Positions 25,512-25,525 of a stretch of DNA of 64,000 nucleotides are shown one piece after another. The stretch lies in assembly GCF_003334765.1 (NCBI RefSeq), contig NZ_QOWT01000001.1. One strand, 5' to 3'. Source of the DNA: Escherichia coli (GTDB lineage Bacteria; Pseudomonadota; Gammaproteobacteria; Enterobacterales; Enterobacteriaceae). The notes beneath the pieces were generated by a model. That model worked only from the letters and a program-made list of their open reading frames with translations, was not told the origin of the DNA and ran no database searches. A program made the translations under genes and the position numbers. Positions within the stretch are counted from its first letter, which is position 1; every line of letters starts with the position of its first letter.

Positions 25512-25525
25512 TTGATAACGATCAA
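25512..25525. promoter_or_regulatory. FNR/CRP-family site (TTGAT-N4-ATCAA) upstream of ydhY
   Basis: TTGATAACGATCAA is a perfect match to the FNR consensus, about 200 bp upstream of the ydhY ATG in an AT-rich region. Confidence 0.6.

Follow-up and report, generated by a model that had tools for sequence, protein, structure and literature searches.

A perfect FNR palindrome upstream of ydhY in Escherichia coli is very probably the operator of a class II promoter with a long 5' leader

The ydhYVWXUT operon, which encodes an iron-sulfur and molybdenum/tungsten-type oxidoreductase system, lies on the plus strand of the 64-kb stretch of DNA analysed here (hereafter the window). The genes at the locus are listed below; further flanking genes, pykF and ynhH, are both on the minus strand.

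25062-25271, plus strand: fumD/ydhZ, the upstream neighbour of ydhY
25726-31456, plus strand: the ydhYVWXUT operon, from its open reading frames and from the RefSeq annotation of E. coli loci that are identical or nearly so
25726-26352, plus strand: ydhY, an open reading frame
to 28475, plus strand: ydhV, followed by the open reading frames of ydhW, ydhX, ydhU/phsC and ydhT, the last ending at 31456

The N-terminus of YdhY (LTRLEFLRISG...LLSLLGC; window 25726-25850) resembles a twin-arginine-type signal with a lipobox. A TATLIPO prediction exists for the protein, and its uncleaved annotated N-terminus was detected in a 2026 N-terminomics study (PMC13245402). As this N-terminus was detected directly, the ATG at 25726 is a real start (PMC13245402). 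The intergenic region between fumD (ydhZ) and ydhY spans 454 bp and has a GC content of 33.0%, against 50.1% window-wide. Directly 3' of fumD/ydhZ, a strong terminator-like hairpin (12 pairs and a T-rich tail, 25276-25304) separates fumD from the ydhY promoter region.

In the absence of oxygen FNR binds the sequence TTGAT-N4-ATCAA as a [4Fe-4S] dimer and, from about -41.5, contacts RNA polymerase in a manner that replaces the -35 element; oxygen converts the cluster and the DNA is released. The 14-bp inverted repeat of an FNR operator is present at 25512-25525, where TTGATAACGATCAA is the sole perfect TTGAT-N4-ATCAA within the window. A sequence-only reading of this DNA had claimed an exact palindrome at this position, some 200 bp ahead of the ydhY ATG and within a 450-bp AT-rich intergenic region, and our measurements agree with it on each point: the box ends 200 bp short of the ATG at 25726, or 207.5 bp when counted from its centre, and lies in the 454-bp, 33% GC region described above. 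Less perfect boxes are found elsewhere in the window, at 4 sites with one mismatch and 41 with two. The expectation for the whole window is 0.16 perfect boxes and at least one appeared in 16/100 shuffles, so that the motif alone is non-significant at the window scale; for the ydhY intergenic region only, the expectation is 0.003 (first-order Markov, analytic). One of the single-mismatch boxes, TTGATTTACGTCAA at 1028-1041, is the ydiQ/ydiP site, which is recorded with an FNR ChIP-seq peak and an H-NS overlap in Table S6 of Myers et al. 2013 (PMC3688515). The remaining ones are at 3507, 3840 and 17503.

The 1.4 kb surrounding the FNR box is 95-100% identical to all 5426 complete E. coli genomes, and the ydhY intergenic region is 100% identical to that of E. 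coli K-12 MG1655 over its full length, so published K-12 experiments carry over base for base. A window position p converts to NC_000913.3 coordinate 1780203 - p. When U00096.2 coordinates were converted to U00096.3 via a second site (ydiQ), the result was off by ~9 nt from the ydhY anchor, and for this reason coordinates were compared only inside the tables of Myers et al., anchored on the ydhY 14-mer.

FNR occupancy of this box in anaerobic cells is recorded in the published tables that we looked up (Myers et al. 2013, PLoS Genet 9:e1003565, PMC3688515, Tables S5 and S6; PMC2690998). Table 1 of Myers et al. places ydhYVWXUT in category 1, directly FNR-regulated, with one FNR site at -42.5 that is positive by both ChIP-seq and ChIP-chip, and cites Partridge 2008 as prior evidence (PMC3688515). 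The site itself appears in Table S6 as the reverse complement of the same 14-mer, TTGATCGTTATCAA, with a PatSer score of 14.78 and the remark 'at FNR ChIP-seq peak'; overlap with Fis, H-NS or IHF enrichment is not noted there for the ydhY site (PMC3688515). According to Table S5, the peak centre is 4 nt from the listed site coordinate, and three ChIP-seq peak callers and ChIP-chip agree (PMC3688515). In vivo binding at ydhY was independently confirmed by ChIP (PMC2690998). The existing FNR ChIP data, which had been proposed as a check, thus place a peak on the exact 14-mer (Myers et al. 2013, PMC3688515; PMC2690998).

The same study documents both FNR dependence and an anaerobic rise in polymerase signal (Myers et al. 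2013, Tables 1, S2 and S8). The ydhY operon is given as 'Activated' by FNR (Table S8), and a sigma70 ChIP-seq peak located towards ydhY, 60 nt off the site coordinate, increases from 46.9 under aerobic to 177.4 under anaerobic conditions (Table S2, PMC3688515), which bears out the anaerobic induction via FNR that had been anticipated from the sequence. With the 14-mer as anchor, this peak maps to window position ~25584, ~65 bp past the box centre and ~140 bp before the ATG. FNR ChIP-chip signal at ydhY was low in the wild type, at 0.29, and reached 1.82 in cells without H-NS and StpA (Table S7, PMC3688515); the perfect FNR box is therefore partly masked in vivo. The ydhY promoter is also preferentially transcribed by the sigmaS holoenzyme in vitro (PMC3141248).

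The position of the transcription start is derived from the -42.5 that Myers et al. 2013 (PMC3688515) quote with reference to Partridge et al. 2008 (Microbiology 154:608). Placing the FNR box there puts the start at ~25561 and gives a leader of ~165 nt. The resulting promoter region contains the following features, where the unstranded ones are given without a strand.

25463-25478: Fur-box-like block ATGATAATAAATATCA, -98 to -83, mean top-base frequency 0.90 over four genera
25463-25491, plus strand: sigma70-like promoter ATGATA-17-TATAAT from the consensus scan (10/12), upstream of the FNR box and overlapping the Fur-like box
25512-25525: FNR box TTGATAACGATCAA, perfect consensus, the ChIP-seq site of Myers Table S6, at -42.5 and kept in 29/29 loci
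25525-25530, plus strand: ATGTTA at the -35 position, poor (3/6)
25548-25553, plus strand: -10 hexamer CATTAT, 4/6 to TATAAT, beginning 22 nt after the FNR box, conserved
25561 (NC_000913.3 1754642), plus strand: transcription start, calculated from the published -42.5; a value of -41.5 would correspond to 25560
25561-25725, plus strand: 5' leader of ~165 nt, bounded by the start and the ATG, with Shine-Dalgarno AGAGGA at 25710-25715
25563-25578: NarL/NarP-like 7-2-7 site TAACCAT-AA-AGGATTA, +3 to +18, each heptamer 6/7 to TACYYMT

This is the arrangement of a class II promoter, in which the activator site lies ~41.5 bp before the start and over the -35 position: the published position is -42.5, a conserved -10-like CATTAT follows the box, and the -35 position is poor. 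Judged from its sequence and place, CATTAT appears to be the only sensible -10 of the ydhY promoter. A sigma70 consensus scan misses this promoter, as is expected of one that depends on an activator. The base at 25561 is C and that at 25560 is T, both unusual initiating nucleotides, and the start could accordingly be a few bases off. The palindrome is almost certainly the FNR operator of a class II, activator-overlapping ydhYVWXUT promoter with a long leader. It looks far from ydhY because of this leader of ~165 nt, and the description 'far upstream' holds only relative to the start codon.

Comparison across species separates the elements that move together from those that drift. A YdhY search with one genome per species yielded 30 loci, spread over Escherichia, Citrobacter, Leminorella and Limnobaculum, of which 29 were usable. 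An FNR box is present upstream of ydhY in every one of these 29/29 loci and is perfect in 26/29; the three others, from Leminorella and Limnobaculum, have the right half-site ATCAC. The N4 spacer varies over the 29 loci (AACG, GACG, AGCG, GATG, AATG). Measured from the box centre, the ATG is 141.5 to 241.5 bp away depending on the locus, while the gap between box and CATTAT is constant at 22 nt throughout the Escherichia and Citrobacter loci and is shifted by 2-3 nt in Leminorella and Limnobaculum. A gap that stays fixed while the box-ATG distance drifts argues for a class II operator and against a distal site serving an ATG-proximal promoter. Mean top-base frequencies over the 29 sequences were as follows.

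FNR left half-site: 1.00
FNR right half-site: 0.98
-10 hexamer: 0.97
TTTTTAA flank before the FNR box: 0.96
stretch between the box and the -10 region: 0.60

The footprint across the four genera gives the promoter layout as a Fur-like box, 33 nt, the FNR box, 22 nt, the -10, 9 nt and the 7-2-7 site. Within E. coli, the 131-bp promoter core occurs in 5389/5426 complete genomes, and in the variants that we sampled (O157 Xuzhou21, CFT073, R4 and VTB97379v) neither the half-sites nor the -10 are touched by any of the differences. With 0.003 boxes expected in the intergenic region and one present in all 29 orthologous loci from four genera, chance does not account for the box.

Several individual genomes depart from the single intact locus. 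Citrobacter sp. NCU1 has two ydhY loci on different contigs (L009 and L025), both with perfect FNR boxes (spacers GACG and AATG), and the 7-2-7 region of the second copy has diverged. E. coli FDAARGOS_1077 carries a natural IS1 insertion at ~25390, ~120 bp upstream of the FNR box, with the promoter intact (position estimated from the annotated transposase). In E. coli LST200A another natural IS1 insertion, at ~25509, borders the FNR box on its upstream side; the promoter is missing there, together with ydhY and the 5' part of ydhV.

The sequence-only reading had left two explanations for the distance between palindrome and gene, a long 5' UTR or a distal activating site. The second would have FNR act ~200 bp upstream of an ATG-proximal promoter, over long range or through DNA bending, and would leave only a short leader. 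The 200 bp between box and ydhY ATG invite such a view, and some FNR sites in Table 1 of Myers et al. 2013 do lie further from their starts, at -56.5 to -72.5 (PMC3688515). It is nevertheless extremely unlikely here, since the published centre is -42.5 and not -61.5 or further, the sigma70 ChIP-seq peak is adjacent to the box and well before the ATG, the plus strand between box and ATG has no promoter-like site in the sigma70 consensus scan, and the box-ATG distance varies by 100 bp between species while box and -10 keep their spacing in Escherichia and Citrobacter. The same observations (the published -42.5, the sigma70 peak beside the box and the fixed 22-nt gap) bear out the long UTR. As to the start site, named beforehand as a check, the quoted -42.5 likewise implies a start at ~25561 beside an occupied FNR box (Myers et al. 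2013, PMC3688515).

Two further explanations would give the box another role or none. FNR might act as a roadblock, sitting ~20 bp past the start of an upstream promoter and blocking it, possibly besides its class II activation. A box 3' of a start site is in a typical repressing position, and the candidate ATGATA-17-TATAAT scores 10/12; however, chance matches of this kind are expected at 33% GC (4 found against 2.7 expected), its TATAAT is E. coli-specific and reads TTTAAT or ATTAAT in other Escherichia and in Citrobacter, the conservation of its -35-like hexamer is better explained by the conserved Fur-like box with which it coincides, and published data show FNR to be, on balance, an activator of the operon. 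We regard a roadblock as very unlikely. That the palindrome arose by chance in AT-rich DNA, or is a CRP site instead of an FNR site, is a practically negligible prospect. CRP and FNR sites are related, and 0.16 perfect boxes are expected window-wide, but only 0.003 are expected in the ydhY intergenic region, the box is kept at all 29 loci in four genera, FNR ChIP peaks fall on it, and its half-site is TTGA, not the GTGA that CRP prefers within the CRP/FNR family.

These considerations leave the class II operator as the preferred reading, for which the following mechanism can be proposed. Without oxygen, a [4Fe-4S] FNR dimer binds the box at 25512-25525 and would stand in for the -35 element, recruiting RNA polymerase by direct contact from ~42 bp before the start. 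The polymerase would then use the weak -10 CATTAT (25548-25553) and start at ~25561, so that the ydhY mRNA would carry a leader of ~165 nt ahead of the ATG. Oxygen destroys the FNR cluster, whereupon the dimer falls apart and activation ends.

A leader of this length could itself be regulatory, and we looked for signs of structure in it. There was no Rfam match in 24700-26000 at E<=1, the fold of a 185-nt leader was no more stable than that of its shuffles (z-score -0.91), and a consensus fold over 16 species was weak (-3.8 kcal/mol), with no compensatory pairs or covariation found. A cis-regulatory leader RNA of the riboswitch or attenuator type was rejected on these three grounds. An attenuator hairpin at 25682-25697 from a terminator scan was also rejected, as it is not conserved in Citrobacter. 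A long-range pairing between CCTAACC (25561-25567) and GGTTAGG (25614-25620) was not supported either: both sides are near-invariant, and the changes that do occur, in C. amalonaticus and Citrobacter HRGM, lose pairing without compensation. The 5' copy CCTAACC is better explained as part of the NarL/NarP site than as a pairing partner. The middle of the leader is poorly conserved and variable in length, with a 19-nt insertion in some Citrobacter and a ~70-nt deletion in C. koseri. In its last ~40 nt (25686-25725, including AGAGGA), by contrast with the middle, hardly any base differs between Escherichia and Citrobacter, although a conserved hairpin was not found.

This 3' part of the leader overlaps a short upstream frame.

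25666-25725, plus strand: upstream frame MLNIRLLNCQHCVCEEDAK, 19 codons, cysteine-rich, its TAA abutting the ydhY ATG

Several Citrobacter have cysteine-rich counterparts, MCCCYCVCEEDAK or MCCCHCVCEEDAK. The ydhYVWXUT operon has been linked to sulfur metabolism, and by analogy the frame could couple ydhY translation to the supply of cysteine or Cys-tRNA, a role that we consider improbable. Polycysteine leader ORFs of this kind have been described in mycobacteria (bioRxiv 10.1101/834739). In C. braakii, C. amalonaticus and C. portucalensis, among others, the frame is broken or has no start codon. Its start is also not preceded by a Shine-Dalgarno sequence. Within Escherichia its conserved part is invariant at the nucleotide level, and the changes in its N-terminal part are mostly non-synonymous. 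Because of these breaks, the missing Shine-Dalgarno and the nucleotide-level invariance, we lean against a conserved peptide; a translation-initiation region fits better, and the frame is probably a by-product of it.

Over the start of transcription, two inverted TACYYMT heptamers 2 bp apart were found at 25563-25578 (6/7 + 6/7). By sequence alone such a match is non-significant, with 4 found in the window against 2.9 expected. The 7-2-7 position is kept in all four genera, and the sites in Limnobaculum (TACCCCC-TT-AGAGGTA) and Leminorella (TACCTCT-TT-GTTGGTA) have canonical TAC heptamers. NarL/NarP regulation of ydhYVWXUT has been published (Partridge et al. 2008). The repression described there is what a conserved 7-2-7-like site at +3 to +18 would be expected to mediate, and we propose 25563-25578 as a candidate NarL/NarP operator over the start, from which these regulators would probably repress. 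A separate, near-perfect 7-2-7-like palindrome, TACCCCCAAAGGGGTG at 25890-25905, lies inside the ydhY coding sequence and may be a chance match or reflect coding constraint.

Upstream of the core promoter, the Fur-box-like block matches the consensus GATAATGATAATCATTATC at 14/19 positions over 25459-25477 (15/19 in Leminorella) and is missed when up to 3 mismatches are allowed. The summit of the CFT073 Fur ChIP-seq peak (1910890) is ~18 bp from the centre of the block and 65 bp from the FNR box. In the CFT073 data, ydhY expression has a fur-/wt ratio of 0.07, is unchanged in the ryhB mutant and stands at 0.11 in the double mutant, which indicates that Fur acts positively and directly, as published. 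For an MG1655 Fur peak, ydhY is not mentioned in the main text of Beauchene et al. 2015. The motif match, the conservation and the proximity of the peak together suggest ATGATAATAAATATCA as a candidate Fur site, where Fur would probably act positively from -98 to -83. The rise in FNR occupancy without H-NS and StpA suggests that Fur at ydhY may work by countering H-NS, that is by anti-silencing, as at ftnA. Elsewhere in the window, the best match to the 19-bp Fur consensus is GTTAGTGATAATGATTATC at 15749-15767 on the minus strand (3 mismatches), which from its position is presumably the Fur site of the sufA promoter.

The promoter described here is the same object as the ydhYVWXUT promoter of K-12 (Partridge 2008; Myers et al. 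2013, PMC3688515): the region is identical, the 14-mer is the same, the position is -42.5, and there is no difference. The FNR site of ydhY is thus already known and ordinary. To the published inputs at ydhY, namely FNR activation from -42.5, NarL/NarP repression, positive Fur control and partial H-NS/StpA masking, this analysis adds the four-genus footprint and the candidate NarL/NarP and Fur positions, which may already be in Partridge 2008. It also adds that conservation extends to the last ~40 nt of the leader but not to leader length. The result has calibration value, in that a reader given only the sequence picked an experimentally proven FNR operator and named the long-leader explanation, and ydhY usefully illustrates how oxygen, nitrate and iron signals are brought together at a single weak promoter.

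In its iron response ydhY resembles ftnA. Fur is said, in work attributed to Nandal et al. in 2010, to activate the ftnA promoter by displacing H-NS. At both genes the effect of Fur is positive, direct and RyhB-independent; one and the same table gives fur-/wt ratios of 0.07 (ydhY) and 0.16 (ftn). As at ftnA, the Fur-like box of ydhY precedes the core promoter, and the AT-rich DNA around it is sensitive to the removal of H-NS/StpA. The comparison differs in that anti-silencing at ydhY is an inference only.

In its nitrate response ydhY is like frdA and dmsA, which are FNR-activated from a class II position and NarL-repressed. At frdA, NarL represses via a 7-2-7 site over the start (-4/+6), and the 7-2-7-like site of ydhY at +3 to +18 fits the same logic. 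As a difference, the ydhY heptamers in Escherichia and Citrobacter begin with TAA and not TAC (6/7 each), and the site is a candidate one. In its core architecture ydhY is like fnrS, nirB, nrfA and narK, class II promoters at -41.5 or -42.5 (Myers et al. 2013, Table 1, PMC3688515), in that an FNR box takes the place of the -35 element, a weak -10 follows and the promoter is induced anaerobically. What sets ydhY apart from other class II FNR promoters is its perfect consensus box, its unusually long leader of ~165 nt and its partial masking by H-NS/StpA.
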